NCBI RefSeq assembly: GCF_963921235.1
Contig: NC_086097.1
Coordinates: 161,946,001 to 162,010,000, forward strand
Source: Mobula hypostoma
Lineage: Eukaryota
Direction: 5' to 3'
DNA length: 64,000 bases
Both the position numbers and the translations under genes were made by a program. The notes below the pieces were generated by a model. It saw only the letters and a program-made list of their open reading frames with translations, had not been told where the DNA came from and did not search any database. This document shows positions 2,018-58,690 of the stretch, piece by piece; the first letter of the stretch is position 1, and each line of letters opens with the position of its first letter.

Positions 2018-2184
2018 GGTATTATTCAGAAGATTGTAGACTCTCATGAAGTAAAGAATGTGGCATGCTTTGGAATTCGACTCAGCCATATACATTCAGA
2101 AGAGGTTCATTGGTTGCATCCAGACATGGGTGTTTCACATGTGCGTGAGAAGTTTGAACAGCATCATCCTTCAGATGAATGGAG
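2018..2184 (+). CDS. PTK2: PTK2/FAK coding exon (FERM F1 lobe), 167 bp
   Basis: tttatag|GGT...TGGAG|gtaaga; translates GIIQKIVDSHEVKNVACFGIRLSHIHSEEVHWLHPDMGVSHVREKFEQHHPSDEW(R), matching the FAK N-terminal FERM sequence. Its phase joins the next exon. Confidence 0.97.
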
Positions 2185-2689
2185 GTAAGAAACACTGAGA
2201 TTCTTCAGAGCTTAACGTCTGGTCTTTATAAATCACTGGTTAGTAATCTAATCAAGCACATAGAAAGTGACTAACCCATAGTCTTCAGTGATGTATGATT
2301 TTGTTCTCTCCCTATATTTGTCATGTTATCTGACCCTACAGTTCTGTCTAATGTGGACACAAAGGATCAATTGCCTCACTTGTGTGACTCTAATCTTATG
2401 TGATATTTTCATTCCTTCACATTTTGCCTTCTGTATACACACAATTTCATCAGGTTAAACTATTCTCTCAGATTATTAATTAGTGTGTTTTTCCAAACCA
2501 ATAATTAGAAAGAAACATCAAGTAAAACATTGAAAACTTAATGAATTGTTAACATAATATTAAGATTTTACAAACTAGTTCTGCTGGCCATATTGAAGTA
2601 TCATATTACTGCAGACATAAAAAGTGTTACCCTTATTGAAGAAGGGCAGCAAGGATGCCAGGTATTTATGGGTTTGTGAGTCAACAGTG

Positions 2690-3490
2690 AGTAAGTTCCT
2701 GGAAAAGATTCTGAGGGATAGGATTGGTCAACACTTGGAAGGCTAGAGATTAATCAAACATGGCAAACGTAGTAGGAGATCCTGTCTGAACAATTTGATT
2801 TAACTTTTTGAAAAGATGGCAAAGTAGTTTGTTGTACTTAATATGGACTTTATTAAGTCTTTAACAATGTCCTACTTGGGAGACTGGTCCAAAAGTTTGG
2901 AGTCCATGAGGTCCAAAGCAATTTAGCAAATTGGATCCAAAGCAGGCTTGGTAATAATGCACAGACAGTAATAGTAGATGGTTGTTTGTGATTGGAAGCC
3001 TTTGACAGGGATAAGAGCTTGGTATTTTGTTGTATATATGAATAATTTGGATATGGAACTAGAGGTATGAAGAGTAAGTGGATGGCATGAAAATTGGAAG
3101 TGTCAATAGTGAGGAAAACAGTTGCGGGCAGCAGTTAAGGTCGATGAGTTGGTACAATGCACAGAGCAATGGCAGATGGAATTCAATCTTGTGTGGCATA
3201 ATCCTGTGTATGCTTCTGTTCACCATACTGGAATGGGCATAATTGCACTGCAGAGGATGCGGAAATGGTTCACCAGGATTTTGCTTGTGATTTTGATGAA
3301 GAGAAACTGATACTCCAGTTATGTTTTCGTTGAAGAAGAGAACCCTGAGAAGTGACATGATAGAGGCATATAAAATAAAGGAGCATAAATAGGGTAAAGA
3401 GTCATAAACCTTTTTGCTTTGTGGAAGATCCTTGATGTTCAGTATGGATCTGATAGGCTAAGAGGCTTGGTCTGGATCGATGACTCTGAA
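2690..3490 (+). mobile_element. Old degenerate CR1 LINE RT fragment
   Basis: Remnants of CR1 ORF2 motifs (QWQMEFN; LQRMRKWFTRIL for ERVQRRFTRML). Confidence 0.75.
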
Positions 3491-4009
3491 CAAATACCTA
3501 CCATATCTGACAGTTTCATTCATGAGGTGGAGGAGCATTTGGGAGGGATGCATTTTGGCTAAAGGAATACTTAATTATCATCTTGCAGCCATCATGCATG
3601 TTTAGTAGACTTAATTGAACACCTAGCCTTTTCTATGCCAACAACTGCATGTTCTTAAAAATTGCAAAGCACGTCCTCTGAAAGGAAACATGAACATCTG
3701 ATGCCCGAACAATATCAGGTTGTTGACACTGATTAATGACAAATAAGTTGGATATCCAAAGTAAGACAGCAGTGCCTATCAGTAATCTGTCAGTTTCCAT
3801 TATCTTCTGGGGGTTGCTCTGTACTTGAGATAAGACAGATAACATCTGGAGAGAAATTTGTTATTGTACTTCATTGACTTACAGGGCAATGTGTAGCTCC
3901 AAAGCTGCAGGGTCTTCAACTCTGCTCTGGATCAATAGCCAAAACCTTTGGCTATGAGTTCAATTGATTAACCACAATGCTCTTTTATACATCACAGGAA
4001 AGCAGCTCT

Positions 4010-4335
4010 TGGAGCTGCTGCAGTACAGATCCAGTGATCTGGATTCAATTCTCGCTTCCAGTGCTGTTTGTGTAGAGTTTAAACATTCTACCTGTGACTG
4101 TGTGGATTTCTAGGTGCTCCAGTTTCTGGGTTCTTCCCATGTTGTGAAGTAATGTAGGTTAGTTATGTTAATTGGCTACTGTTAATTTTTCTTAGGTGAG
4201 TGGTAGAATCTTGGGGAAAGTTGATGAGAACAATGGGAAGTTTTCAGTAAAAGGCAGAATTATCGTAAATATGTGCTGCTGGTTTCCATGGAATTGGTGG
4301 GCTGAAAAGCCAGTTTTATTGCTGTTTGCCCCTCT
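4010..4335 (+). mobile_element. tRNA-derived SINE (V-SINE/HE1-like), degenerate
   Basis: B-box-like ggattcaattct followed by a gtgtagagttt..cattct.cctgtgactg.gtgg.tttc core; a related copy lies at 35390-35660. Confidence 0.6.
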
Positions 4336-5469
4336 GACTTCCTGTATGCCTTTATTTCCTTACCCTATTGTGATTAAATTTAAGCAGTGTTTTTGACAAA
4401 CATTTTATATTTTCACTCCCTTTGTAATTTGTATCTCATTACCATTCTTTCACATTTGAGAAAGCTCATTTATTTGATTCTTGAGCATTACTTCACTCTG
4501 CTGATGACTTCTCTCTGAAGCCTTCAAGGCTTAGCTAGAGTTTTGTGCACATTGATGTGGCTTATAATTTCAAAGATAGCTTCTTCCAAATCTATTGTAG
4601 ACCTCCACAGAATAATCTAATCCTTTTTTTCTGTGATTTGATATATATTAGATTTAAGAATTCTGAAAGACCTGGAAACAATTTTTGATTTTGTTTCTCA
4701 GTGTGCAGTGCTAAATGAAGTTTGCTACGTTTCATCATAATTTTTTTTTGTTTTGTTATATATTTTATTTTCAGAAATCCAGTTAGTACTGCAGCAACTT
4801 GAGTTCAATTATTTAATGTCTTCATAGAACTTGCATGATCTACCTGTGATGTTGTGGGTTTTTGCTCACATCATAGGTGTTTGGTAGGTTACGATGGGTG
4901 TTGGTTGATGGTGAGAGGGTCGTTATAGTTTAGTGACATGTAAAAACCATTGGATTACAAGAAAATAATTGGGAAATGGAAATGCTGTGAAGTTGGGATT
5001 GATGCTTTGGGTCAAATGGCTTCCTAAAATGTCATATGAAAATAAAAGTTACTTTGCTGCAGTAATGGGAGAGATCTTAAGGATGTTCTTCGCAAAATTG
5101 GAAATATACTCAAATTGTACTTTCCACAAATTGTTCCGCATAAAGTTCTATCTTTGATAACAGTTTTTATGTTGGAAACTGTTCATTCACGAAAATGCTG
5201 AAGTTGCAGTATGTTTCAAAGATAATGTTAATGAAAGCTTATGATTTTAACACTCATACTGCTGCAGACTCGAGACTAGTCGTTCCAAAGTTTAACTTTG
5301 AACAGCTGTTTCGGGCTATGACATGAGGTTAATTTTTTTTTTGCTTTTTGGCATTTTGATAGATTATTTTGTAAGCCTTTCCATTCCAGGATTAATGAGG
5401 AATTGTATTAATTTGTTGACGTTCAGTTAATAACCTTAAAATATACATTACTCCTGATAATTTGTTCCA

Positions 5470-6500
5470 AATTTCAAAGTAAGTTTATTATCGAAGTACG
5501 TATATGTTACCATACTATATTCTACCCTGAGGTGCATTTTCTTGTGGGCATTCACAGTAGAATAAAAGAATACAATGGAATGAATGAAAAAACTACAAGC
5601 AGCCAACGTGCAAAAGAAGACAAACTGTCTAAATACAAAAAAAAAGTAACTAAATAATACTGAGGACATGAGCTGTAGAGTCCTTGAAAGTAAGTCCATA
5701 GGTTGTGGAATCAGTCCAGTGTTGAGGTGAGTGAAGATATTAATTCTAGTTCAGGAGCCTGATGGTTGAAGGGAATGGTTTGGAATCTAAGGCTCCTTTA
5801 CCTCCATAGCGATGGAAGGAGGGAGAAGGGAGTATAGCCCGAGATAGTGGGGGCCCCTTGATGATGGATGCCAGTTTCTTGTGGCAGTGCCTAATTTACA
5901 TGTGCTCAGTGGAAGGAGGGGTTTTCTTGTGATGGACTGGGCTGTATCCACTACTCTTTGTAGGCTTTTCCATTCGTGGGAATTGGTGTTTCCATACCAG
6001 GCTGTAAAGTAACTAGTCAGTATAGATTCCTCCTGTGCATCTATAGAAATTTGTTAGAGTTTTAGATGACATGCGCGAGCTTCTAAGAAAATAGAGCCTT
6101 CTTTGTAACAACACTTAAATGCTGGTCCCAGGAGAGATCCTCTGAAATGATAATGCCAGGGAATTTAAAGCCCTCATCTAATCCTTTAATGAAGGTTGAG
6201 TCATGGATCCCTGGTTCCCCCCTCCTCCCCTACTCCTCTCCCCCTCTCCCCCGCCCCCCCCCCCCATAGTGAACAATCAGTTCTTTGGTTTTGCAAACAT
6301 TGAGTGAGTGGCTTTTTTTTGTGACACTATTCAACCAGATTTTCAATCTCTCTCCTGTATGCCAATTCTCCAATTCGTCACTACTTTTGATTCAGCAAAG
6401 TGGTGTCATCAACGAACATAAATATGGCATTGGAACCCTATTTAGCCTCACAGTTATAAGCATCAAGTTGAAATTCAAGTTGAGTTTATTGTCATTGAAC
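5470..6500 (-). mobile_element. Rex1/Babar (L2-group) LINE 3' fragment
   Basis: Similar to minus-strand elements 59310-60100 and 24185-25730 (ttccataccaggctgt..., ggtcccaggagagatcctctga). Confidence 0.6.
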
Positions 6501-6879
6501 TACACACAGGATCTCACCTGAAACATTGACTCGTCATTCCCCTCCATAGATATTGCCTGGCTTGCTGAGTTCCTTCAGCATTTTGTGCATGTTGCTTAAG
6601 GTTTGCAACGCCTGCAGAATTTTGAGTTCAGGAATCATCAAAATTCAAGTATGCAAAACAGCAGTAGTGAATAAATATCATAAGAAATGGTGAATGAGAA
6701 GTGGGTTTGCAATGTTTAAAAGAAATTAAGAGAAAAGTTTGACAAAGTCCTTATCATAATCTTCCAGTTTTCTTTACCTTGCTCTCCAATATAGGCAGTT
6801 TGGGAGAGTCAACCAGGAATAAAATGTTAATTAGCCTAATAGCTTTTGTTGCAAATTACATGATTCAGTAAAATGACCA

Positions 6880-7380
6880 TTTTGCAGAGTAGATTTCTTC
6901 TGTCTGCAATGGTCATCTCCAGCTTCTAGTTGCATGCCATTTTAACTCTTCTTCCATCTTACACACTGACCTCTCTTTTCTCAGTCTTCTCTATTGCTTT
7001 TGAAAACCTAAAAGCAAATTGAAAGATTGGCATCTTACATTCTGCTCGAGTAACTTACAACTCAGTGCTGTCCTCCCCCATGTACAATTTTTCTTCTCTC
7101 TTGTGTTCATCCCTTCCATTCCCTTCTCCCAACTGGTTCTATCTTTCTATCATCCCCTCCCAAATTGGCTTCAATCACTTGCCAGCCCCTGCGCCAGCCC
7201 CCTTTCCCTCACCCAGGCCAATCTGCCACCTCATCCCTTCCCAATCTGGTGTCCATGATCCCCAACCAGCATCCATCCTATTCTTTTCATAGTGCTATAT
7301 GTTGGCAATCTTTCCATTTTCTTCTTAATTCTGATATAGCTTCTTGACCCAAAACATTCCTCACCTCTGGCCTCCTCTTA
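6880..7380 (+). mobile_element. Degenerate Penelope-like element 3' fragment (another short piece at 6510-6630)
   Basis: Remnant of LPVACHFNS and a pyrimidine-rich 3' UTR as in the other PLE copies. Confidence 0.55.
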
Positions 7381-7590
7381 TGTACAGTTAATCCAATTCT
7401 TTCTCTTGTCATTGGTAACCTCCGGGATATTAATAGTGGAGGATTTAGTGATGGTAATGCCATGGAATGTCAGGGGGTGATAGTTATTGTCATTGCCCAA
7501 CATTGTGTGCCACAAATATTACTTGCCACCTGTCAAGCTCAGGCCTGACTCTTGTCCAGTGACATTATCTGGTAATTGACTTCTTACGCC

Positions 7591-8718
7591 TTTAGTAAGG
7601 CATTTGACAAGGTTCCACAAGGTAGGCTTATTCAGAAAGTCAGAAGGCATGGGATCCAGGGAAGTTTGGCCAGGTGGATTCAGAATTGGCTTGCCTGCAG
7701 AAGGCAGAGGGTCATGGTGGAGAGAGTACATTCAGATTGGAGGATTATGACTAGTTCTGGGACCTGTTCTGGGACCTCTACTTTTTGTGATTTTCATTAA
7801 AGACGGGGATGTGGGGGTAGAAGGGTGGGTTGGCAAATCTGCAGACGACACAAAGATTGATGGTGTTGTAGATAGTGTAGAGGATTGTCGAAGATTGCAG
7901 AGAGACATTGATAGGATGCAGAAGTGGGCTGAGAAGTGGCAGATGGAGTTCAACCCGGAGAATTGTGAGGTGGTACGCTTTGGAAGGACGAACTCCAAGG
8001 CAGAGTACAAAGTAAATGGAAGGATACTCGGTAGTGTGAAGGAGCAGAGGTATCTGGGGGTACATGTCCACAGATCCCTGAAAGTTGCCTCACAGGTGGA
8101 TAGGGTAGTTAAGAAAGCTTATGGGGTGTTAGCTTTCATAAATCGAGGGATAGAGTTTAAGAGTCGCGATGTAATGATGCAGCTCTATAAAACTCTGGTT
8201 AGACCACACTTGGAGTACTGTGTCCATTTCTGGTCACCTCACTATTGGAAGGATGTGGAAGCATTGGAAAGGGTACAGAGGAGATTTACCAGGATGCTGC
8301 CTGGTTCAGAGAGTATGCATTATGATCAGAGATTAAGGGAGCTAGGGCTTTACTCTTTGGAGAAAAGGAGGATGAGAGGAGACATGATAGATGTGTACAA
8401 GATGTTAAGAGGAGTAGATAGAGTGGCTAGCCAGCACCTCTTCCCCAGGGCACCACTGCTCAATACAAGAGGACATGGCTTTAAGGTTATGGGTGGGAAG
8501 TTCAAGGGGGATATTAAAGGAACGTTTTTTTATTCAGAGAGTGGATGGTGCGTGGAATGCAATGCCTGAGTCAATGGTGGAGGCAGGTACACTAGTGACA
8601 TTTAAGAGACTACAAGACAGGAATATGGAGGAAATTAAAGTGGGGGGTTTTATGGGAGGCAGGGTTTGAGGATCGGTACAACATTGTGGGCCGAAGGCCC
8701 TGTAATATGCTGTACTAT
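7591..8718 (+). mobile_element. 5'-truncated CR1 LINE (RT C-terminal half and 3' UTR), young
   Basis: ORFs 7576-7800 and 7787-8569 with FSKAFDKVP, ADDTK, WQMEFN, VRPHLEYC, ERVQRRFTRM; near-identical to 22841-23980. Confidence 0.95.
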
Positions 8719-9721
8719 TACCAGGAAAGTGGATGAAGGGAAGGCAATGGATGTTGTCTACATGGACTTCAGTAAGGCCTTTGACAAGGTTCCGCATGGA
8801 AGGTTAGTTAGGAAAATTTAGTCGCTCGGTATACATGGAGAGGTGGTAAATTGGATTAGACATTGGCTCAATGGAAGAAGCCAAAGAGTGGTAGTAGAGA
8901 ATTGCTTCTCAGAGTGGAGGCCTGTGACTAGTGGTGTGCCACAGGGATCAGTGCTGGGTCCATTGTTATTTGTCATCTATATCAATGATCTGGATGATAA
9001 TGTGGTAAGTTGGATCAGCAAATTTGCTGATGATGCAAAGATTGGAGGTGTAGTGTACAGTGAGGAAGGTTTTCAAAGCTTACAGAGGGACTTGGACCAG
9101 CTGGAAAAATGGGCTGAAAAATCGCAAATGGAGTTTAATACAGACAAGTGTGAGGTATTGCACTTTAGAAGGACAGACCAAGGTAGAACATACAGGGTAA
9201 ATGGTAAGGCACTGAGGAGTGCAGTGGAACAGATGGATCTGGGAATACAGATACAAAATTCCCTAAAAGTGGCATCACAGGTAGATAAGGTCATAAAAAA
9301 AGCTTTTGGTACATTGGCCTTTATTAATCAAAGTATTGAGTATAAGAGTTGGAATGTTATGATGAGGTTGTATAAGGCATTGGTGAGGCCAAATCTCGAG
9401 TATTGTGTTCAGTTTTGGTCACCAAATTACAGGAAGGATATTAATAAGGTTGAAAGAGTGCGGAGAAGGTTTACAAGGATGTTGCCGGGACTTGAGAAAC
9501 TCAGTTACAGAGAAAGGTTGAATAGGTTAGGACTTTATTCCCTGGAGCGTAGAAGAATGAGGGGAGATTTGATAGAGGTATATAAAATTATGACGGGTAC
9601 AGATAGAGTGAATGCAAGCAGGCTTTTTCCACTGAGGCAAGGGGAGAAAAAAACCAGAGGAACATACATCAAAGTTGCTGGTAAACGCAGCAGGCCAAGC
9701 AGCATCTATAGGAAGAGGCGC

Positions 9722-9757
9722 AGTCGACGTTTCAGGCCGAGACCCTTCGTCAGGACT
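9722..9757 (-). ncRNA. Minimal hammerhead ribozyme motif, inverted copy with intact core
   Basis: Exact reverse complement of 11293-11328. Confidence 0.78.
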
Positions 9758-11292
9758 AACTGAAGGAAGAGTGAGTAAGGGATTTGAAAGCTGGAGGGGG
9801 AGGGGGAGATACAAAATGATAGGAGAAGACAGGAGGGGGAGGGATAGAGCCGAGAGCTGGACAGGTGATAGGCAAAAGGGGATACGAGAGGATCATGGGA
9901 CAGGAGGTCCGGGAAGAAAGACGGGGGGGGGTGACCCAGAGGATGGGCAAGAGGTATATTCAGAGGGACAGAGGGAGAAAAAGGAGAGTGAGAGAAAGAA
10001 TGTGTGCATAAAAATGAGTAACAGCTGGGGTACGAGGGGGAGGTGGGGCCTAGCGGAAGTTAGAGAAGTCAATGTTCATGCCATCAGGTTGGAGACTACC
10101 CAGACGGAATATAAGGTGTTGTTCCTCCAACCTGAGTGTGGCTTCATCTTTACAGTAGAGGAGGCCATGGATAGACATGTCAGAATGGGAATGGGATGTG
10201 GAATTAAAATGTGTGGCCACTGGGAGATCCTGCTTTCTCTGGCGGACAGAGCGTAGATGTTCAGCAAAGCGGTCTCCCAGTCTGCGTCGGGTCTCACCAA
10301 TATATAAAAGGCCACATCGGGAGCACCGGACGCAGTATATCACCCCAGTCGACTCACAGGTGAAGTGATGCCTCACCTGGAAGGACTGTTTGGGGCCCTG
10401 AATGGTGGTAAGGGAGGGAGATCAGTGGGGAGGGATGGGGGGGACGAATGGACAAGGGAGTTGTGTAGGGAGCGATCCCTGCGGAATGCAGAGAGAGGGG
10501 GGGAGGGAAAGATGTGCTTAGTGGTGGGATCCCGTTGGAGGTGGCGGAAGTTACGGAGAATAATATGTTGGACCCGGAGGCTGGTGGGGTGGTAGGTGAG
10601 GACCAGGGGAACCCTATTCCTAGTGGGGTGGTGGGAGGATGGAGTGAGAGCAGATGTACGTGAAATGGAGGAGATGCGTTTAAGAGCAGAGTTGATAGTG
10701 GAGAAAGGGAAGCCCCTTTCTTTAAAAAATGAAGACATCTCCCTCGTCCTAGAATGAAAAGCCTCATCCTGAGAGCAGATGCGGCGGAGACGGAGGAATT
10801 GCGAGAAGGGGATGGCGTTTTTGCAAGAGACAGGGTGAGAAGAGGAATAGTCCAGATAGCTGTGAGAGTCAGTAGGCTTATAGTAGACATCAGTGGATAA
10901 GCTGTCTCCAGAGACAGAGACAGAACAACACCTTATATTCCGTCTGGGTAGCCTCCAACCTGATGGCATGAACATTGACTTCTCTAACTTCCGCTAGGCC
11001 CCACCTCCCCCTCGTACCCCAGCTGTTACTCATTTTTATGCACACATTCTTTCTCTCACTCTCCTTTTTCTCCCTCTGTCCCTCTGAATATACCTCTTGC
11101 CCATCCTCTGGGTCACCCCCGCCCCCCGTCTTTCTTCCCGGACCTCCTGTCCCATGATCCTCTCGTATCCCCTTTTGCCTATCACCCGTCCAGCTCTCGG
11201 CTCTATCCCTCCCCCTCCTGTCTTCTCCTATCATTTTGCATCTCCCCCTCCCCCTCCAGCTTTCAAATCCCTTACTCACTCTTCCTTCAGTT

Positions 11293-11328
11293 AGTCCTGA
11301 CGAAGGGTCTCGGCCTGAAACGTCGACT
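11293..11328 (+). ncRNA. Minimal type-I hammerhead ribozyme motif (PLE-associated), intact core
   Basis: AGUC-CUGACGA-AGG(GUCUCGG)CCU-GAAA-C-GUC-GACU: stem I AGUC/GACU, conserved CUGANGA and GAAA boxes, GUC cleavage triplet, stem III reduced to palindromic ACGU. Confidence 0.8.
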
Positions 11329-14300
11329 GCGCCTCTTCCTATAGATGCTGCTTGGCCTGCTGCGTTTACCAGCAACTTTGATGTATGTTGCTTGAATTTC
11401 CAGCATCTGCAGAATTCCTGTTGTTTGCGAAAAAAAACCAGAGGACATGGGTTAAGGGTGAGGGGGGAAAAGTTTAAAGGGAACATTAGAGGGGGCTTCT
11501 TCACACAGAGACTGGTGGGAGTGTGGAATGAACTGCCAGACGAGGTGGTAAATGCGGGTTCTTTTTTAACATTTAAGAATAAATTTGACAGGTATATGGA
11601 TGGGAGGTGTATGGAGGGATATGGTCCATGTGCAGGTCAGTAGGACTAGGCAGAAAATGGTTCGGCACAGCCAAGAAGGTCCAAAAGGCCTGATTCTGTG
11701 CTGTAGTTTTTGTATGGTTTCTATTCTATGTTTATTGTCTCATGTAGTGAGATACATGGAAAGCTTTGGTTTGCATGCTACCCATAGAACTCTTTGCAAA
11801 GCGTAAGTACATTGAGGTAGAATAAAGGGGAAAGCAGCAAAAAATGCAGAATGCGGTCTTACATTTACAGTCAATGCAGTCATCATCGATCATCCTTACT
11901 TCTGACTTTACAGATGAAGGAAGCTCATTGATGAAGCAGCTGAAGAATATAGGATACAAGATCTTAAAGAACTCCTGTGAATGTATCCTATGACTGAGAT
12001 AATTAACCTCTAGCCGCCACAACCATTTTCCTTTGTGCTACATATGATCCCAACTATACCTAATTGAAATTTCCCCCCAAATTACATTGACTCCAGCTTA
12101 ACAGAGCTTCTTAATGCCATACTTAATCAAATGCTGCCTCAATATCAAGGGCAGCTCAGCTCAAGTTATCTGTGAAGCATTCCTTTTGTCCATGTGTGTA
12201 CTAAAGGTGTAACGAAGGTCAGGAAATGAGCAACTTTGGTAGAATCCAGGTTGAGTTGCCTTGAATATGTTATACTTAAATGTGCTAATTGTGGGCTTAA
12301 AATTCTATAACAGCATAATCTTAAGTGTTACATAACCATTCAAATTTGTTCAGCGCATTAAAAATACCTGAATTTTTTTTTTGAAATCTTGTTACGGTGC
12401 TGTAGCAAGTGTTATTATGCAATTTGCATGGTAAATATTAGACTAACTTTAATACAAAATATGAAAATTGTACATTTCTTGTTCTAAAGTTGGATTTTTT
12501 TCCCCATTTTCTATATTCCTTATCATCCTGAAATTAGTATTGACATATATGCCCTTCTTTTGGCAGAAGAGATAAGTTTAGTTAGCCTCTTGATTACTAA
12601 TTTAATTTAATTGGGCTAGCACAATATTGTGGGCCGAAAGGGCCTGGCCTGTAGCTGTGCTGAACTGTTCATCAAACGACTAACAAATATAAACCAACAT
12701 ATATCTTGTGTGTAATTGCATCATGTATTTTTGGACTTGTAAAAGGGATAGAAACAGAGAAAACCCTTTAAAACAGTTTTTGCTGATATTCTATAAAAAT
12801 GAAAGTACTATCTTATGATAGAATGGATAAGAACTCTGTTGGCTTTTTAAAAATATTATCCAGATAGGCACCAGCATCAACTCGGTTTCGCTAAAACTAT
12901 CATGTTTTTCTTTCCATCATTTATCCATTTCCTTTTGTTAATTTGGTTCAGGTGGTGCATCCTGGAGTTCAACAAATAAGTCTGCATTTTTTTTTCTTTC
13001 ATACCATCCCCAGTTATTCCTCAAGTAAATTAAAATCAAGAAACTGAAGATGGCAAAATTCTGAAACCAAAGTGGATGATGCTGAGAGAACTCAGCAGAT
13101 CAGGCAGCTTCCATGGAAAGAGAAACTATGGTTAATATTTCAGGTTATAGATATAGACCTTTCCACAGATACTGCCTGATGTTTGAATTGAGAATCTGAA
13201 GCAGATAGTTCACCAATGCCTCACGAGTTTCTCAGAATGGGTAATAAATGACATTGCATTGTATACCAAGTGCTGTCTGTCTCAATATATGTATTATTTC
13301 AATAATTCTGATATTTCTGTACTTAATTTTATTGCAATAAAGCCCAATGTTCTGCCTTATAATTTCTTGTTCCACTTAAGTTCCTATAGTGGTTTATGTA
13401 CAATTTTATCTAAATCCCTATGAATGTCTTTCAACCACTCATAATATTAAAAAAAAATGAATCTGCTTTTCTGCTGTCTATCAAGGCTTCACATTTTCCA
13501 TGTGGCATTGCAGTCCATTCATTTAGCCTGTTAATATCTCCTTCATACCTCACTGTCAACAAACTTCAATATTTTATATAGTTTCCTCAGCTAACTTATC
13601 AATAGAAGTTATGAACACTTGGGGTCCAAACATAGATCCCTGTGGCAACTGATGAGCCACAACTTTCCAAAATGAAAATCATCATTTTATTCCAACTTGA
13701 TTTATTGTCCATTACAAATCCTCAAACCACACACCATTCAGTATCCTGTCCCTGTGTTCTAATTTGTGTCGGATCTTTTTGATGCCTTCTAAATGCTTAA
13801 ATACATCACATCCATTGGTTGACTCTAGTTGCAACCTCAAACAACTTAACAGATTTGTCAAATGTTAGTATTCCTTCCTAGGTCAATGTTGGCTCTGCCC
13901 AATCCTATTATCATTTTCTGAGTACCTTAATAGTGGATTCCTGCACTTTCCTCTACTCTCTTAATCAGTGTAGAGGGCTCAGGCTCAGTAGACTTGTGGA
14001 AGTATAATATAGCTAGTACTGAAATATTATGGTGAAAACAATGTTAAGAGGTTTATCATCTATATAATCAAGGATAGGCATCAAGGTGTTTAGAGAGTCT
14101 AATATGAGTTGTTTTGACTAATGTGCGAATTGTTTTGAAGACTTACAAGGGTATATGTGCATGCTTCATGTCGGCATGATTGTTGTAAGTCCTTGATGGG
14201 ACATTTTTTTTGGAGTTGAGTATCTGGCGAGGCCATTACTTTACATCTATGTAATATTGCCCTTGGGAAGATGGTGCTGAGCTACTTCTGTCGAAAGTGC

Positions 14301-15503
14301 TCCCACTGTGCTAATGTGATGAAAGCTCCTGTATTTAAAACCACTAACTATGAGGGAACAGCAATACATTTGGAAGTCCAAGGAGGGAGTGAGCTGGAGG
14401 AAAACCTACAGATGGCAGGTGTTTACATGTACACTAAGTTGTCCTTGCTAGAGGTTGTGGGATTGGAACATGCTGTCAGAATAGCTTAGGTAAGTGAATG
14501 GTGTGCATTTTACAAGTGGTACATTTTTGCAGCTTTCCTGTGTAGTTGATGGAGCAGAGCTGGAGATAGTAGGCTGTTTTGTCCTACATGCCGTTAAGCT
14601 TCTTGCATGTTGTTGGATTTGCAGTCATCTGTCCAATTGGTAACATTCCATTGATGGTAGTGATAAGCATTTAGGGAATCAGAAGATGAGTATTTGCAAC
14701 ATCTATGAATTGATTTGCATTTGTAGTAGAGAGCACTTAAATATATAGCAAATTATGAAGTGAATTCTGAATCAAAATTACGAGTCAGGTAACTAAAAAT
14801 TCTTATTTCCATAGCACTGCCATGACTTATTAAGCACCGAATGAATTCTTATCTATAAGAATTTTTTAGTATTAAGAGCTATTAGTTCTTCTTGGAAATA
14901 AATACTGCAGTAGGAGATTAGCAATCTATTTGCAAAATTTCCACATAAAACCTAATTTGTTCAAATGAGCATTGTACATCTTTTTTCAGTCAATTGGACA
15001 TCCAACAACAGTGGAAATATTCTGCTATCTTGGTTTTATGATCATGGTTACAAATGTCTATAAAATTCTGAATATAGCTTCTAACATAGATAAATGGTTA
15101 CCACACAAGGCAGCCTTGGAAACATATTTGAGTTAATGCTTGGCTCCTTTGTTCAATGAATAATAAGCCACTGAAATTACTCTCCAACACCACATTTTAT
15201 GATATTCCTTCCACAGGTTGTTGATGCACTACACCATCATCCAAAAAGGAAACTGGATGCCTATTGACAGTTGGAGCAGAGGAATTTGATTGCAGCTGGT
15301 TCTGTCAGACTAAATTTATTGAGGCAATAACTTTATTAAAGAATAACATCAATTTGTTGATTTTAACCTATGAGGGTTTCTTAAATGACATGTGCTGCAC
15401 AGCATATTGTTTAGGATTGAACTAAGAAGTATTATTCCCTATTTAATCAAGTTATCCCTTGATAGTGTAGGAACAAAATGAAATAGGCGTAGGAAGTTGT
15501 TAC

Positions 15504-17560
15504 CAAGCAACACACACAAGATGCTGGAGGAACTTAGTAGGCCAGACAGCATCTATGGAAAAGAGTATAGTCGATGTTTTGGGCCAAGACCTTTCACATG
15601 ACTGGAGAAAGAAAGCTGAGGAGTAGATTTAAAAGGTGAGGGAAAGAGAAACACAAGGTTATAGGTGAAACCTGAAAAGGCGAGATGAAGTAAAGAGCTG
15701 GGAAGTTGATTGGTGAAAGAGATAGAGGGCTGGAAAAGGAGGAGTCTGACAGAAGAGGACAGAAGGCCATGGAAGAAAGAAAAGGGGGAAGGGGCACCAG
15801 AGGGAGGCGATAGGCTGGCAAGGAGATAAGGTGACAGAAGGAGAAGGGGATGGGGGGGGTGGCATTACAGGAAGTTTGAGAAGTCGATGTTCATGCCATC
15901 AGGTTGGAGGCTACCCAGACGGAATGTAAGGTGTTGTTCCTTCAACCTAAGTGTGGCCTCATCACGACAGTGAAGGAAGCCATGGATAAGCATGTTGGTA
16001 TGGGAATGGGAAGTGGAATTCAAATGGATGACCACTGGGAGATCCCACTTTTTCTGGTAAGTGCTCGGTGAAGCGGCCTCCCCATCTATGACACATCTCA
16101 CCGATATACAGAAGGCTACACTGGGAGCACCAGACACATATATATTCTCAACGGACTCACAGGTGAAGTGTCGCCTCACCTGGAAGACTGTTTAGGGCCC
16201 TGACTGGTAGTGAGGGAGAAAGTGTAGGGGCAGGTGTAGGACTTGTTCTGTTTGCAAGGATAAGTGCTAGGAGGGAGATCACTAGGAGGGATGAATGGGC
16301 AAGGGAGTCGCATAGGGAGCGATCCCTGCAAAAAGTAGTGGGGGGGAGGATAGATGTGCTTGGTTGTGGGATCCCATTGGTGAGGCATAAGTTGCGGAGA
16401 ATTAAGTGCTGAGTGCAAAGGCTGGTGGGTTGGTAGATGAGGACAAGAGGAACCCTACCCCTGGTAGGGTATCGGGAGAATGGGTGAGATCTGATGTGCA
16501 TGAAATGGAAGTGATGCAGTTGAGGGTTGTGCCCAGGCAGGCATCATGACCTGATGTTTCCTTATGGGGTCCTGTTCGACGGGTAAATAAGAGGAAGTGT
16601 CTGAGAGTTAGCGCTGGTCCTTAGCAAGGTAGAGGTCAGTACGCCAGGCTACTACAGCACCTCCCTTATCTGCGGGTTTGACGATGACATTAGGATTGGT
16701 GCGCAGGAAGTGGAGAGGAGAGTGTTCAGAAGGAGTGAAGTTGGAATTGGAGATAGGAGTGTTGAAGTCTAGACAGTTGATGTCCCGTTGGCAGTTGGCA
16801 ATGAAAAGGTCCAGAGCAGGGAGAAGACCAGGGCAGAGTGTCCAAGAAGAGGAGGAGGGTTGAAGACTGGAAAAGGAGTCATCAGTACGAGGTGGAGAGT
16901 TCTTGCCAAAAAAAAAAGACTTGGAGACAGAGGCAGCGGGAGAAAAGCTGAGTGTCATGGCGGGCGTGGAACTCACTGAGGTGTGGGCACAGGGGACAAA
17001 GTGAGGTCCTTACAGAGGACAGAACATTCTACCTTAGCGTGACGAAGGTCAGAGGAAATTGTGAAGACCCGGCATGGATAAGAGCTGGGATCAGAGGGGG
17101 GAAGGGGGTTAATGTCTGAGGAGAAGGGAGGTTTGGGGTGTTCAGGGATGGTGGGGTTAGAGGAAGGTAGAGTCTCCAAGGACCCAATAGCAGGCAGTGG
17201 GACCTGAAAGACCTGGTGGGGGAAGGGGAGATGGGAGTTCCAGCAGCAGTGCATGAAGAGGTCAAGGCTGGAGTCAGTGTGGGATGTTGTGCAATCAGCA
17301 CTTTGGAGATGTCCGAAGTCTTTGGAACCTGCATTGATGGTGGTGGAGTCTCGGTTTTGAATCAGCTCTGGATCATTAGAGCCATTGAGGTCAGCAGCAG
17401 GGATCGCAGTCTGGAGATGTCCGGGCCTGTTGGCGCTGGAGACAGGAGGTCCTGTGGTCTGTAGACGGGCGATCTTCTGATCCTTGCAGGATGTGAGAAA
17501 GTCAAAGAACCCGCGATTGAAAGCATGGATCTGGCTGTTACCATGGTTGTCTGCTGAGTG
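15504..17560 (-). mobile_element. Older Penelope-like element with internal deletion of the RT core
   Basis: GIY-YIG remnant (15865-16179), Cys linker TYPCKQNKSYTCP, RT N-terminal motif NPNVIVKPADKGGAVVAW (16608-16976), decayed hammerhead at 15569-15603. Confidence 0.88.
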
Positions 17561-18021
17561 GTTGATAATGTCATATGAGGGAATAACAAATAGATAGATG
17601 GAGTGAAAGAAATAGTCAAATGACAATTACATGTTTGTATGCTGCTTCAAGTTCATATCCCTCAGTACAACTTATTGTGTGCACCGAATTGTTTTCACTA
17701 AGGATAGTTGTAAGCAGTGAAGTTTTCATCACTCAATGTTTTGCCTGAAAAGACTAGAAACTTAGAATTTGTCAATGAGCTGGGAATAATTGACAACACT
17801 TTTGGATTTCTGACTTCAGCTGTGTTGACTTTACTCCAAAATGAAGCATCGGTAGTCTCGCCATTATTGTTACCATTTATTTCAGTCCCATAAGTCATTT
17901 TATGCATTCTCAATGCTACCAGCTGTGAATGTGCATCAACAGATCTTGAAGTATTTTGAATTATAATTCATTTCAGTAAGAATATGAGATCAGTGGCTGA
18001 CGTAATGTTGTTTTCTTTCAG

Positions 18022-18109
18022 ATATGAGCTTCGGATCAGATATTTACCCAAAGGTTTCTTGACAGAGTTCAGCGAAGATAAGCCTGCTTTAAATTTCTTT
18101 TATCAACAG
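18022..18109 (+). CDS. PTK2: PTK2/FAK coding exon, 88 bp
   Basis: ttttctttcag|A TAT GAG...CAA CAG|gtgagt; (R)YELRIRYLPKGFLTEFSEDKPALNFFYQQ. Confidence 0.97.
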
Positions 18110-26369: not shown

Positions 26370-26449
26370 GTTAAGAATGATTACATGATGGACATAGCTG
26401 ATCAAGTGGACCAAGATATTGCACTGAAACTAGGGTGCCTTGAAATCAG
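26370..26449 (+). CDS. PTK2: PTK2/FAK coding exon, 80 bp
   Basis: tttgttag|GTT AAG...ATC AG|gtgagt; VKNDYMMDIADQVDQDIALKLGCLEI(R). Confidence 0.97.
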
Positions 26450-26469
26450 GTGAGTCCATTCCACCAATC

Positions 26470-26736
26470 AAAATTAGCTCTTTCACCAATCAACTTCCTA
26501 GCTCTTTACTTCATCCCTCCCCTTCCCGTTTCATCTGTTACCTTGTGTTTATCACTCCCCTCCCCTGACCTTTTAAATCTATTCCTCACTTTTTTTTGCT
26601 CCAGTCCTGCCAAAGTGTCTCTGCCCGAAATGTCGATTGTACCTTTTTCCATAGATGCTGCCTGGCCTGCTGAGTTCTGCCAGCATTTTGTGTGTGTTTC
26701 TTGGATTTCCAGTATCCGCAGATTTTCTGATGTTTG
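26470..26736 (+). mobile_element. Penelope-like 3' fragment with decayed hammerhead (26603-26638), about 20 bp from an exon donor
   Basis: ccagtcctgccaaagtgtctctgcccgaaatgtcgatt...atagatgctgcctggcctgctgagttc...gatttccag. Confidence 0.8.
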
Positions 26737-26964
26737 TGATTGGAAGCCCATTCCATATAACCTTACATTTGAGAAAAAACTTTTGACATCCAGTAGTACC
26801 AGAATATCACTTAATTGAGTTTATGGAAGTATTAATAGAAAGATCATAAAATAACTATCAGCAAGCCATCAGGTGAACCAATTACCATTAAAAATGTTGC
26901 ATATCATTTACAAATCTGGTTTGTGATCAGCAAGTGATTTTTAAAAAAACATTGTTTCAGTTTT

Positions 26965-27948: not shown

Positions 27949-28015
27949 GTGAGTAATTTATTGTTGTATTTCAGTTTTATTTATTTGACTGTGTGAGCAA
28001 TTGATTTGCACATAT

Positions 28016-28580
28016 CTCAAGGGACTGGCAGCTGTTGGTGGACCTCGAAGGGCAGCTGAAGTTCCCCAACCATATCGCAGCCACCACCCTGCGACCAGAC
28101 ATTGTCCTAGTGTCTGAGTCTACTGAGCAAGTGGTGCTGCTGGAGCTGACAGTCCCATGGGAAGATAGCTTGGAGGAGGCCTTTGAAAGGAAACTCTCCA
28201 AGTACGCAGGACTGGTCAGCAACTGTCAGCAGGCTGGATGGAGAGCGGGGTGTCTCCCAGTGGAGGTTGGTTGTAGGGGATTCATAGCCCGTTGTTTAGT
28301 TAGAGCCTTCAGCATTTTGGGCATCGACGGAGAGAGGAAGAGGAGAGTCATTCGCAGTACCACCGATGCGGCAGAGAGGGCCTCAAGATGGCTGTGGCTC
28401 AAAAGAGGGGAGCCATGGAGTCATAAGTAGCTAGCCATCTGGACACAAGCTGGGGTCTGATCAGCTCCGGCTGGGTCACCTGGAGGAGGTTGTATGATGT
28501 TGAAAGACCCGAAACACCCGATGATTCCAGGAACATCACTGAAGATGTGTCCAGAAGCATCAATAGATGTATGTACACAG
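28016..28580 (+). mobile_element. R2-superfamily (HERO-like) non-LTR retrotransposon 3' end with restriction-like endonuclease
   Basis: ORF 28035-28430: TTLRPDIVLVSES..QVVLLELTVPWE..LEEAFERKLSKY...PVEVGCRGF, a PD-(D/E)xK RLE domain. Confidence 0.85.
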
Positions 28581-30209: not shown

Positions 30210-32999
30210 CACTACCTCGGAAGAAGCGCCAGAGGTGAAGGAGCAGGGCCGGCATACTGGTGAGGCTGAGATGGCGTGCAAATCGGCCGCCGCTCCCTAG
30301 CATACCCCTGGCTAACGTTCAGTCCCTGGACAGCAAGCTTTGTGAACTGTGAGCCAGAATCTCTTATCAGCAGGAAACAAAGGAATGCAACATTCTGTGC
30401 TTCGTGGAGACCTGGCTGACGGAGGAGATACCGGATCATGCCATCGAGCCCTCTGGGTTCTCCCTGTTCCGGGCGGACAGGTCAAGAAACCTCTCTGGGA
30501 AGAGTAAAGGAGAAGAGGTATGCTTCACGGTCAACAATGCTTGGTGCAAACCCCAGAATGTGCATACACTCAAATCCTTTTGTTTCCAAGACCTGGAATA
30601 CCTGGTGCTGCTGTGCAGATCGTACTGGCTGTCTAGGGAGTTCACGGCTATTATTACAGCGGTGTTCATTCCGCTGCAGGCTGATGCTGACCTGGCTCTC
30701 AAGGAACTGTACGAGACCATCAACACACTGGAGACTGCACACACGGAGGCTGCCTTCATTGTCACCGATGATATTAATCAAGTGTCACTGATGAAAGTCT
30801 CTCCGAAGTTTTGTCAGTACATCCAGGTGAGCACTCATGGAGATAAAGATACTTGACCACTGTTACACTCCCTTCCGCAATGCTTACAAAGCTCTCTTTC
30901 ACCCAGCTTTTGGAAAGTCAGGTCACTCTTCAATCCTGCTTTTGCCAATGTACAGGCAGGAGCTAAAACAAGAGGCAGCTATAGTTAAAACCGTCCACTG
31001 TTGGTCTGACCAATTGCCCTCCAAGCTGCAGGACTGCTTTGATGATGTCAACTGGAATGTCTTCCATGATGAGGATATCTCCGAGTTCTCTGATGGAATC
31101 ACCTGCTTCATCTGGAAGTGCATCCCCCAAAAGTCGGTCAGGGTCTTCCCGAGCCAGAAACCCTGTATCAATTGTTCCACGCGGGCAGCACTTACCGCAT
31201 GACATAGAGCTTACATTGCCAGTGGTCAGCTAGGGCTCAAGAAAAGCAGCTATGGTCTGCGCAGTGTTATCAAGGCTGCGAAGCAACAATACAGGGACAA
31301 GATTGAGTCAAGATCCACCATGAATAGCACGCATGACTTGTGGCGAGGGCTGCATACCATTGCAGACTTCAAAGCCAAACGTTGTGCCGCCAACATCGTG
31401 GCCTCTCTCCCAGATGAGCTCAATCACTTTTATGCTCAGTTCGATGTTGCTAATTCTGAACGTCCGAGGAAAGCCACCGCTATAACCTGCAACCCGGTTA
31501 TCCCTGAGGCTGAGGTACACAGATGTTTCCAACAAGTGGACAGTCACAAGGCTGTGGGACCGGACAGCATCCCAGGGCGAGTATTCAGGATGTGCGCAGC
31601 ACAACTGGCAGGTGTGTCTACTGACATTTTTAATCTCTCCCTCTCCCAGTGTGGAGTGCCCTCCTGCTTTAAATTATCCACCATTGTCCCTGTACCAAAA
31701 GAGAGCAAAATAACATGTCTGAACGACTGGCGTCCTGTAGCCCTCACTTCGTTAATAAGCAAATTCTTTGAGAGGCTAGTCAAGGATTACATCTGCAGCT
31801 TGCTATCACCCAAACTGGACCCTTTGCAATTCGCCTACCGACAGAACCGATCGACAGATGACACAATAGCTACTGCTCTACATGCTGTCTTTACACATGT
31901 GGAGAAGGAGGATGCTTATGTGAGAATGCTGTTCTTGACCACAGTTCAGCATTCAACACCATAGTTCCATCAAGGCTCAGAGACCTCAGCCTTGACCCTG
32001 TCTTGTGCAGCTGGATCCTGGACTTCCTGTCAGATTGCCGGCACGTGGTAAGAGTGGGCTCCTTCATCTCCACCCCTTTGACTCTTAATACCGGAGCCCG
32101 TCAGGGCTGCGTACTAAATCCCCTCCTTTACTCCCCGTATACCCATGACTGTGTTGCCACCCACAGCTTTAATCTGCTAATTAAATTTGCCAACGACCAT
32201 ACATTGATAGGCCTTATCTCAAACAATAATGAGGTGGCCTACAGGGAAGAAGTCATCTCTCTTGACACAGTGGAGTCAAGAAAACAACCTCTCCCTCAAT
32301 GTCGCAAAAACAGAGGAGCTGGTTGTGGATTACAGGAGAAGTAGAGACGGGCTAACCCCTATTGACATCAACGGATCGCGGGTTGAGAGGGTAAGCACTG
32401 TTAAGTTCCTTGGCATCCACATCATCGAGGACCTCACATGATCTGTACACACCTGCTGTGTGGTGAAAAGGCAAACCTCAGACGGTTAAGGAAGTTTGGT
32501 ATGGCCCCCCAAATCCTAAGAACTTTCTTTCGGGGCACAACTGAGAGCATTGGCTGTCTGCATCACTGCCTGGTTTAGAAACTGTACCTCCCTTAATCCC
32601 AGGACTCTGCAGAGAGTGGTGCAGACAGCCCAGCGCATCTGCAATTGTGAACTTCCCATGATTCAGGACATTTACAAAGACAGGTATGTAGAAAGGTCCC
32701 GTAGGATCATTGGGGACCCAAGTCAACCCAACCACAATCTATTCCAGCTGCTACCATCCAGGAAACGGTACCGCAGCATAAAAGTCAGGACCAATGGGCT
32801 CCGGGACAGCTTCTTCCACCAGGCCATCAGACTGATTAACTCACACTGATTTGAGTGTATTCTATGTTACATTGGATGTTCTATTTATTATAAATTACTA
32901 TGATTGCACATTGCACATTTAGATGGAGATATAACGTAAAAATTTTTAGTTCTCATGTATGTGAAGGATGTAAGAAATAAAGTCAATTCAATTCAATTC
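30210..32999 (+). mobile_element. Near-full-length Rex1/Babar LINE, frameshifted (APE and RT)
   Basis: [80 protein letters not shown]; 3' end aataaagtc(aattc)n. Confidence 0.92.
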
Positions 33000-45890: not shown

Positions 45891-48263
45891 CAGGTCCACA
45901 ATCCCTTATCCGAAATTCTTGCGGCCAGTCGCATTTCGGAATTCAGAATTTTTCGGATTTCAGAAAATTGATAATTATATTGAGAATTAACCTGTCTCAT
46001 TGCAGGTGGACTTTAGGACCTGAGGGAGCTCCAGACCTACGCACATCCTCCTGTATAATTTAAATCATCTCTAGATTACTTATACCTAATACAATGTAAA
46101 TGCTATGTAAATAGTTGTTATACTGTATTGTTTAGGGATTAATGACAAGAAAAAAGTCTGTACATGTTCAAACAACGAGTACTGGAGAGAGAACTTCCGG
46201 GTTTTCTTGATCCATGCTCTTTTAAAAATACTATTACAGTTTATTTATAGAGTAATATACTGATAAATGAAATAGTAGGATAATTATAGACCATAAATAC
46301 AGTAGTACATTTTATTTCCAACAAAAACATTCAATAAAACATAATATACAGCTTCAAACGAACCGAATCAAACACATGGTAAATGACTTATTGGAATATA
46401 TGTAGAACGTAAATACTCTCGGACATATACAGGTTCAAACTGAGCTAAATACATACAGGTACCTCTAGTTAAGTTGCATTACGTCTGGCAAACAATGCTA
46501 AATACTCTACAGGTGCCTGATGGGCCAGGAACAGGATTCTCAAGTTATGAAGCAGCACTATGACAGATGGCATTTTTAAAGACTTCTTCAAGTGTCATCT
46601 GTCTCATTAACATAGGTTTATGTCTAAGCAATCTCTCTTTAACTGAGTAAACTGCCATAATCTCTTGCTCACTGATAAATGCACGTTGTTCAAGGCCAGC
46701 AATTAACTGATCACACATTTTCACCATATCGTCTATGGGGATTTTTTCACCTGTGTTTACTATGTCATCATCATCAATACTATCTTCATGCTTATTTAAC
46801 ACCATTTCAGCAATTTCCCCATCACTCAAGGAATGCACAACAGGTGCATCATTGTTAATGTTCAGCATTTCTTCAATGTCAGCTTCCTCTAACATTTACA
46901 CTTTCGCTGGATAACATTTTAGCGTAAGTTATGAGGTTTGATATCATCATCTTCTCATTAGTGACACGAAATCCTACTAAAGTCTTGACCTGCAGGTTCA
47001 TTTACATCAAACATCATTGTAGACCAAAGTCTGTGCCAAGCGTTTGTTATTGTTAATTTATCAACATCATTATAAGCATTAGCAACTGCGTAAATGGCAT
47101 CCTTAACATTGAACTCTTTCAGGAAGTCTTGGATTCCTACTCCTCTGTTGACTGCAGAAAGTATACAATTCAAAAAATAGTCTTTATACTTGCTCTTCAT
47201 GAAGCGTAAAACTCCTTGGTCACAAGACTGTAATATAGATGTCACATGGAGGCGGGGGGGGCAAGTAAATTGCGAAAACATTACTTTTCACAAGAAGTTC
47301 AGCAGGGGGATGTGCAGAGCAGTTGTACAGGAACAATAAAACTTTACAGTTTTCTTCCAGTCCAGCTTGCCTGCAATGAGCTCGTACTGCTGGTACAAAG
47401 TGGTATTGAACCAGTCAGAAAGTATTTCTCGGGTTACCCATGCTTTCTTGTTTGCATAATAATGCACAGGTAAATTGCGTACGCCTTTCAGACATCTCGG
47501 ATGTTGGCTTTTTCCAATCAATGCCAACTTCACCTTGTGTGTGCCTGCTGCATTGGCACACTCAAGAATAGTTAACCTGTCCTTAGCATCTTTAAAACTT
47601 GTTGGTGCTCTCTCATCAGCCGTTGTTAATGTTTTTCTAGGAACATAGCACCAGTACAAAGCTGTTTCATCAGCATTGTAAATCTGTTCAGGGCTAAGGT
47701 TTTCATCAGATATTATCTTGACAAATTCGTCAATGTAATTTTCAGCTGCTTCATGATCAGCAGAAGCTTTTTCACCACAGATTTGCAAATATTTTACTCC
47801 ATGACGCTTCTTAGATTTCTGCAGCCATCTCTCTGAATATTGACATTCACCTTCAATGTTCAGTTCTTCATGGTATATTCTAGTTTGTTTCATGATTAAC
47901 ATGCCATTCAGTGGCATACGTTCACTTCGTTGTCTAATCCACTCAATCAACACACGGTCTCATTGTTATCCGTAGGGGTATCTACAGCTCTTTTTGACGT
48001 TTTCGCAGTGAAATTAAACACAAAGTCAACAGTGAACACAAAATATCAGTGAACAGCAAATACACGTGTAACCAGCACGATCGCTGTGAGCCACAATTGA
48101 CGTCTAGTGGCCTCTGCTAGTGCTGCCACATCACACCTGAGTGATGTCAGCTGTTGGCGTGCCAAACAAGTCTTGTTGCAACACGCTCCACACTCCACGA
48201 AAAAAACTTTGGTTTTTGGAACTTTTCGGATTTCAGAATTTTGGATAAGGGATTGTGGACCTG
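45891..48263 (-). mobile_element. Tigger/Jerky-like (pogo) DNA transposon with pseudogenised transposase
   Basis: 29-bp TIRs caggtccacaatcccttatcc(g/a)aaattct with TA on both sides; CENP-B HTH and DDE_1 pieces (YNADETALYW, KDRLTILECANAAGTHK, KKAWVT, TSILQSCDQGV) in ORFs 47288-47953, 46958-47281, 46545-46895. Confidence 0.94.
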
Positions 48264-54801: not shown

Positions 54802-54879
54802 TCAAGCTGGATAATTTCAGTGGAATTGGCAATTGGACCAGAAGAGGGTATCAGCTACCTTACAGACAAAGGTTCAATG
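54802..54879 (+). CDS. PTK2: PTK2/FAK coding exon (start of FERM F3), 78 bp
   Basis: atctttaccag|TCA AGC...TCA ATG|gtatgt; SSWIISVELAIGPEEGISYLTDKGSM. Confidence 0.97.
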
Positions 54880-57686: not shown

Positions 57687-58690
57687 GCACGAGGAAATCT
57701 GCTGATGCTGGAATTTCAAGCAACACACACAAAAGTTGCTGGTGAACGCAGCAGGCCAGGCAGCATCTCTAGGAAGAGGTACAGTCGATGTTTTGGGCCG
57801 AGACCCTTCATCAGGACTAACTGAAAGAAGAGCTAGTAAGAGATTTGAAACTGGGAGGGGGCGATCTGAAATGATAGGAGAAGACAGGAGGAGGAGGGAT
57901 GGAGCCAAGAGTTGGACAGTTGATTGGCAAAAGGGATATGAGAGGACCATGGGATAGGAGGCCTAGGGAGAAAGAAAAGGGGGAGGTGGGAAGCCCAGAG
58001 GATGGGCAAAGAGTATAGTGAGAGGGACAGAGGGAGAAAAAGGAGAGGGAGAAAAAGAATGTGAGTAAGTAAGTAAGTAAATAAATAAATAAATAACGGA
58101 TGGGGTACGAGGGGGAGGTGGGGCATTAGCAGAAGTTTGAGAAGTCAATGTTCATGCCATCAGGTTGGAGGCTACCCAGACGGAATGTGAGGTGTTGTTC
58201 CTCCAACCTGAGTGTGGCTTCGTCTTTACAGTAGAGGAGGCCGTGGATAGACATATCAGAATAGGAATGGGTCGTGGAATTAAAATGTATGGCCACTGGG
58301 AGATCCTGCTTTCTCTGGCGGACAGAGCGTAGGTGTTCAGCGAAACAATCTCCCAGTCTGCGTCGGGTCTCACCACTATATAGAAGGCCGCATTGGGAGC
58401 ACCGGATACAGTATATCACCCCAGCCGACTCACAGGTGAAGTGTTGCCTCACCTGGAAGGACTGTCTGGGGCCCTGAATGGTAGTGAGGGAGGAAGTGCA
58501 AGGGCATGTGTGGCACTTGTTCCGCTTACAAGGATAAGTGCCAGGAGGGAGGTCGGTGGGGAGGGATGGGGGGGACGAATAGACAAGGGAGTCACGTAGG
58601 GGAACTTCTGCCACCTCCAACGGGATCCCACCACTAAGCACATCTTTCCCTCCCGCCCCCCCCCGCTTTCCACAGGGATCGCCCCCCCTA
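57687..58690 (-). mobile_element. Penelope-like element 3' part (Cys linker, GIY-YIG, 3' repeat) with a short 5' inversion
   Basis: GTYPCKRNKCHTCP...VIYCIRCSQCGLLYSGETRRRLG; hammerhead remnant at 57783-57818; 58603-58690 is inverted relative to the body. Confidence 0.92.

Follow-up and report, generated by a model that had tools for sequence, protein, structure and literature searches.

A Penelope-like hammerhead motif in a PTK2 intron, probably silenced by pairing with its upstream antisense copy

Introduction

Does an intact hammerhead core on the sense strand of a PTK2 intron expose the pre-mRNA to cleavage, and does it have any meaning for that gene? The question is raised by positions 11293 to 11328 of the window (the 64,000-nt stretch of Mobula hypostoma DNA analyzed here), which the initial annotation had described as a potentially self-cleaving motif that awaits a partner. 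Lunse et al. are said to have described, in 2017, the cleavage of Penelope-like hammerheads as dimers. Minimal hammerhead ribozymes (min-HHRs) are found in the pseudo-LTRs of metazoan Penelope-like elements (PLEs), including the fish elements Xena, Poseidon, and Neptune, and in the published examples the monomer had no activity and the dimer little (Cervera and De la Pena 2014, PMC4209133). We therefore asked what the motif is, which transcript and which mobile element it belongs to, and what partners are available to it in the PTK2 pre-mRNA.

Results

By inspection of the sequence, the motif reads as an intact type I minimal hammerhead on the plus strand (Table 1). The core CUGANGA / GAAA / UH is present with a helix I of 4 to 5 bp and a helix II of 4 bp, and there is no stable helix III, only the palindromic positions around 15 and 16. 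The letters, the core, stem I, and the ACGU stem III are as the initial annotation had described them. Its AGG-loop-CCU stem II stands as a stem, but not in its register: among the 64 distinct 36-mers in a set of 80 homologues from 944 kb, the pair A11304-U11316 is kept in 31 and the closing pair G11305-Y11316 in 57, and on these counts the A11304-U11316 register was rejected. Stem II is better drawn with A11304 unpaired (G11305-U11316, G-C, G-C, U-G; loop CUCG). A11304 is present in 78 of the 80 homologues and provides the unpaired nucleotide that min-HHRs have between 9 and 10.1. At 10.1-11.1, the window copy has G-U, as do 31 of the 64 distinct homologues, and 25 others have G-C.

Table 1. 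Features of the PTK2 intron, the Penelope-like insertion, and the hammerhead motif, in window coordinates
Feature	Position	Strand	Remarks
PTK2 FERM N-lobe exon	2018..2184	+	upstream of the motif's intron
PTK2 intron, 15,837 nt, GT..AG	2185..18021	+	holds the insertion
Next PTK2 exon	18022..18109	+	
Host LINE reverse-transcriptase fragment	8822..9661, resumes after 11431	+	RVT_1, E 2.1e-15
Target-site duplication, left, 15 nt	9647..9661	+	100% repeat pair
Target-site duplication, right, 15 nt	11431..11445	+	100% repeat pair
5'-truncated Penelope-like body	9662..10922	-	post-RT region, GIY-YIG, 3' pseudo-LTR
3' pseudo-LTR	about 9662-10124	-	
Hammerhead copy identical to the motif, in the element's own 3' pseudo-LTR	9722..9757	-	perfect complement in PTK2 pre-mRNA
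GIY-YIG endonuclease	10053-10421	-	profile match over cut-off on window fragment
55-nt deletion	at 10417		removes Cys linker; in body of window copy
Inverted 5'-truncated pseudo-LTR arm	10923..11429	+	GIY-YIG coding end, 3' UTR, hammerhead, tail
One-sided tail, 37 nt	11393-11429	+	reads as part of the element ORF's first codons
Minimal type I hammerhead	11293..11328	+ (sense to PTK2)	core pattern, descriptor scan, homologue counts
Stem I	11293-11296/11325-11328	+	4-5 bp
CUGACGA core segment	11297-11303	+	
GAAA core segment	11317-11320	+	
Stem III, palindrome ACGU only	11320-11323	+	
C17, predicted cut after it	C11324	+	

A search with hammerhead descriptors and models, which had been proposed as a check, gave a divided answer. 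The descriptor scan of the window found seven loose hammerhead cores, two of them with both stems, namely the motif and its identical minus-strand copy (core 9726-9753). The motif pattern with up to 3 mismatches had three matches in the window, compared with none in 100 shuffles, the third being a decayed copy at 57787-57814 on the minus strand. Rfam scans, on the other hand, returned no hammerhead family at the gathering threshold or at an E value of ≤10. Folded in isolation, the 36-mer was no better than shuffled sequences (z = -0.37) and did not take the active form, as expected, because its stem III is a single base pair closed by two nucleotides.

The motif might then be no ribozyme in this family but a conserved terminal-repeat signal (promoter, protein-binding, or RT-stop) that resembles one. 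The Rfam result and the inactive monomer fold are consistent with this explanation, and so are the young copies, among whose 64 distinct homologues variation is concentrated at CpG sites, double changes occur in single copies only, and no compensatory signal is seen. Ribozyme mutants, moreover, left the insertion of the Anolis Poseidon element PAc in vitro unimpaired (Frangieh et al. 2024, PMC11167929, in part). Against it, the motif agrees with the published class at every core position, in its palindrome, and in carrying an extra nucleotide after A9 (PMC4209133), and an older subfamily (loci L158 to L165), which shares homologous downstream sequence with the young family, has U-A in place of C-G as the inner stem I pair in seven of eight loci viewed (two tandem duplicates), a pair that the search had left free. 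Stem II of this older subfamily has 5 bp, with a closing pair that is A-U in 64 matches and A-C in 4; the pattern used for this count fixed the remainder of stem II, and CpG decay also favors U. We consider a signal without ribozyme function unlikely. The proposed check for covariation in stems I and II thus failed among the young copies, where neutral decay is expected; pair changes of this kind show up only in the comparison with the older subfamily, which lends modest support to a hammerhead fold kept in master elements. The core looks conserved between subfamilies and so probably works in such elements.

Another older subfamily (window coordinates -17646 and 26603; loci L152 to L157) carries A6C in the core. 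It has 700 matches in the genome (control, 0), with a common downstream flank in most of the six loci viewed; natural A6C in other hammerheads is described as favoring Mn2+ over Mg2+ (PMC7151607, in part). Within the young subfamily, U at 11.1 (11316-11317) removes a CpG that overlaps the catalytic G12. G12 is often lost to A in copies with C at 11.1 (A at G12 in 15 of the 80 homologues, mostly after C), and U at this position is possibly a mutation-proofing side effect.

Because exon 2018-2184 favors FAK1 structures (E = 2.6e-25) over PYK2 (E = 5.6e-10) and the paralogue lies on a separate contig (C22), we assign the gene in the window to PTK2 and reject PTK2B as the host. Matches to the FERM_N, FERM_C, and Focal_AT domains follow in order on the plus strand, with FERM C-lobe exons at 54802 and just beyond the window and the FAT domain about 230 kb further. 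Contigs from all four runs examined, belonging to two studies, join 2184 to 18022 at GT..AG; that these runs represent RNA is a guess, and the individuals were not necessarily carriers of the 9662-11429 insertion. The plus-strand gene, the FAK1-type exon, and the spliced joint bear out the sense position in a PTK2 intron, and the presence of the motif in every PTK2 pre-mRNA holds for this allele. A search of the 160 kb upstream gave no CpG island by which to place the PTK2 transcription start; further hammerhead copies upstream, at window coordinates -13,065, -20,166, -51,937, and -86,424, are accordingly left unassigned to the transcript. Part of the sense arm (11260-11382, plus strand) resembles a cryptic exon: a long pyrimidine tract with several AG dinucleotides leads up to the hammerhead, and a GT follows at 11383; no joint that uses this segment is among the run-contig joints listed.

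The motif lies inside a 1.77-kb Penelope-like insertion (9662-11429), which is flanked on each side by a 15-nt perfect direct repeat and splits a LINE that we take to be of the CR1 type. Loose ends in the run contigs join both LINE sides of the insertion, and the end of the element at 11429 coincides with such ends. The plus-strand arm (10923-11429) is 99% complementary to 9658-10124, giving an inverted repeat of 467 nt; the arms differ by three C/T substitutions and one 3-nt indel, and no A-to-G editing scar was seen between them over the 467 columns. The initial annotation had overlooked both this inverted repeat and the antisense twin of the motif. In comparison to three full-length copies, the window copy has 17 to 19 substitutions in about 1.27 kb (1.3 to 1.5%), and judged by its sequence the insertion is young and non-autonomous.

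Other repeats were seen in and around the window. Contig C1 has fold-back insertions of very short length that turn inside the hammerhead core, at window coordinates 177481-177508 and 259137-259140. PTK2 introns also hold older Penelope-like fragments with decayed hammerheads (15553-17626 on the minus strand, 26444-26820, and 57783-58821 on the minus strand). Decayed frames are present in the window at 46545-47959 (minus), 62276-62901 (plus), 30353-32849 (plus), and 28005-28430 (plus); from their translations, these four presumably represent Tigger/pogo transposase, Tc1 transposase, and two other non-LTR retroelements.

Full-length relatives of the element (L092 to L094) have an RT/GIY-YIG frame of 1,043 codons and carry the motif in both of their direct pseudo-LTRs, at a distance of 3,512 to 3,515 nt, which confirms the PLE pseudo-LTR origin proposed in the initial annotation. 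The core in the window copy is identical to that of the full-length copies. Locus L100 likewise has an open 1,043-codon frame and two direct pseudo-LTRs, and from the sequences of these copies the family looks recently or still active. The full 1,043-codon protein gave matches to RVT_1 (E = 2.2e-4) and GIY-YIG (E = 1e-3) that were both under the cut-off. A CX4CX2C linker is present in all 12 long-frame loci examined and was lost from the window copy by the 55-nt deletion. Neptune and Nematis elements are distinguished by a CX2-5CxxC linker that separates RT from endonuclease (PMC8557442, in part), and we assign the family to the Neptune-type PLEs, a clade call made from the linker. The natural dimer context of the motif is this full-length element, whose two direct copies are separated by 3.5 kb. 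In its transcript, the two direct motifs would form a double hammerhead through ACGU:ACGU pairing, with a cut some 60 nt ahead of the first ATG to which the element protein might contribute.

PTK2 pre-mRNA offers the motif a different partner. In the equilibrium fold of 9600-11480, a prediction for naked RNA whose duplex could be opened by hnRNPs, helicases, or editing, there are 461 arm-to-arm pairs, and all 36 motif nucleotides are paired to 9722-9757, with a motif-twin pair probability of >0.997 at the 11 positions reported. Freeing 11289-11332 from this predicted fold would cost about 101 kcal/mol, and the computed energy of the motif-antisense duplex is -76.3 kcal/mol, compared with -9.5 kcal/mol for the dimer fold. 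Folds of the growing transcript had 75 arm pairs when it ended at 11000, and 400 pairs with all 36 motif nucleotides included when it ended at 11330.

During transcription of PTK2, the antisense arm would be made first, 1.5 kb before the motif, and the two arms would zip from their inner ends while the second arm is being transcribed. The motif would emerge into a duplex of about 460 bp and would then be removed with the intron. Inverted Alu pairs are substrates of ADAR, and the duplex is predicted to be one in the same way. From this modeling, we consider it very probable that the motif is a passenger hammerhead in an inverted PLE end repeat that is kept silent in PTK2 by the upstream antisense copy. 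It would likely stay uncut in the PTK2 pre-mRNA because of this predicted pairing.

Genome-wide, a 31-nt motif pattern has 43,114 exact matches in 3.48 Gb, divided between the strands (21,552 plus and 21,562 minus), with none for the reversed-pattern control. The relaxed core has 159,733 matches (control, 2,453), or one per 22 kb. The PTK2-specific significance that the initial annotation had implied does not survive these numbers, the motif being one copy among the 43,114. The PTK2 coding span (about 307 kb) contains 21 sense homologues, 5 of them intact, and 22 antisense homologues, also with 5 intact; because of these equal numbers and the genome-wide abundance, a PTK2 sense copy is what chance insertion would be expected to produce.

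The nearest intact sense copies lie 80 kb downstream and 24 kb upstream of the motif. Intron 2185-18021 has no second sense copy; besides the antisense twin it holds one decayed antisense copy, near 15604, and a cis dimer partner within the same intron was therefore rejected. With no such copy, and with a perfect complement 1.5 kb earlier that is predicted to sequester it, the idea of a self-cleaving motif awaiting its partner in PTK2 could not be upheld. Each of the five intact sense copies in the coding span, of which only 11293-11328 is in this intron, has an inverted partner 49 to 1,560 nt upstream, and no intact lone copy was found in the span on either strand. Of the 22 intact copies in the 944-kb sample, 16 lie no more than 5 kb from an inverted partner (pairs counted twice), and among the first 30 exact matches on contig C1, 7 have one within 1.5 kb. 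Inverted pairing is not family-wide.

An occasional cut in trans, through dimerization with element RNA or with the help of element protein, is a different matter, although it would have no consequence for PTK2, the intron being removed anyway. The motif has an intact core that does not differ from the one in full-length copies; partners could be plentiful, given some 160,000 cores genome-wide and the many contigs that cover the repeat in the likely-RNA runs; and protein-assisted cleavage has been published for the Anolis element (PMC11167929, in part). The predicted sequestration, however, would cost about 101 kcal/mol to undo, the dimer fold would gain roughly 9.5 kcal/mol, and by the strand counts half of the repeat-derived RNA would be an antisense competitor. 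We regard such cuts as quite unlikely.

Discussion

Conserved vertebrate intronic ribozymes are generally single-copy and competent as monomers. The motif in the window is neither of single or low copy number nor independent of a young mobile element, and it is very improbable that it has been co-opted as a regulatory ribozyme that tunes PTK2 pre-mRNA processing, as the initial annotation had implied. Such a role would fit its sense orientation in a transcribed intron, and intronic ribozymes with suggested host roles do exist, as in CPEB3 and the amniote hammerheads (PMC6765202, in part). The insertion, however, is young, at 1.3 to 1.5% from full-length copies, and nested in a LINE, and its motif is one of 43,114 matches; PTK2 has no strand bias (5 versus 5), and the intron offers no partner and a predicted dsRNA lock. 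A slow hammerhead cut inside an intron has, in addition, been reported not to block splicing (PMC2995048, in part), which argues against co-option; by analogy, the PTK2 intron motif might be harmless even if it were cut.

In a wider reading, the inverted-pair format might be an antisense safety catch: lone sense copies would undergo trans cleavage during expression of the element and would be under negative selection in introns, whereas locked pairs such as the present one would be tolerated; we hold this to be decidedly improbable. If true, it would mean that about 160,000 Penelope cores expose almost all long pre-mRNAs to possible cleavage guided by the element. With one relaxed core per 22 kb, most large genes in the genome should have an intact sense-strand hammerhead in an intron, and its context can silence it. 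The present finding adds another copy to a motif class already published, and is of use as a caution and as a test bed. The young, very high-copy family gives statistical power for a genome-wide test, and trans cleavage or orientation selection, if shown on that scale, would bear on the in vivo role of Penelope hammerheads.

Much of what is described here is known already: earlier publications cover the motif class, its location in pseudo-LTRs, pairs on opposite strands, and the inverted layout (PMC4209133; PMC8557442, in part). The one small addition, a prediction from modeled folds, is the antisense lock of a PLE hammerhead in a host intron. Our literature searches found nothing on antisense locking or inverted-repeat silencing of PLE hammerheads in host introns, and nothing on elasmobranch Penelope hammerheads; the supplements of PMC4209133, which possibly include cartilaginous fish, were outside their scope.

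Compared with the min-HHRs of PMC4209133, the motif is alike in being of type I with a conserved core, palindromic positions 15-16 and no stable helix III, in the 4 to 5 bp of helix I, and in the unpaired nucleotide between 9 and 10.1; as there, most copies are dispersed single copies or close opposite-strand copies of truncated elements. It differs in its helix II, of 4 bp here and 7 to 8 bp in Schistosoma, and in its closing pair, which is G-U in the window subfamily whereas G10.1-C11.1 is highly conserved in that study, though not part of the descriptor. With 43,114 exact and about 160,000 relaxed matches, it is also far more numerous than the 4,000 to 9,000 copies given there for coelacanth and Xenopus, which were counted with different descriptors.

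The full-length relatives resemble the EN+ PLEs of Craig et al. 2021 (PMC8557442, in part) in having an RT, a C-terminal GIY-YIG, and a Cys linker. The window element shares with these the inverted 5'-truncated copy and a one-sided tail of 30 to 40 bp, and it is unlike them in being truncated and in having lost the linker. In the Anolis PAc element, cleavage of the hammerhead required the element protein, and reads with an end at the cut site were absent (PMC11167929, in part). Both elements have the hammerhead near the ORF start and a genomic tail within the first part of the ORF, but the cut falls 26 nt into the ORF in PAc and is predicted about 60 nt before the first ATG here.

Like the amniote intronic hammerheads and CPEB3 (PMC6765202, in part), the motif is on the sense strand in an intron of a protein-coding gene; those ribozymes are described as ultraconserved, whereas the window motif belongs to a young repeat of high copy number and lacks a stable stem III. 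With the animal non-LTR retrozymes (bioRxiv 10.64898/2026.07.22.740005, in part) it has in common a hammerhead derived from Penelope-like elements. Retrozymes, however, are direct tandem repeats without an ORF, and the locus in the window is an inverted pair with coding remnants.
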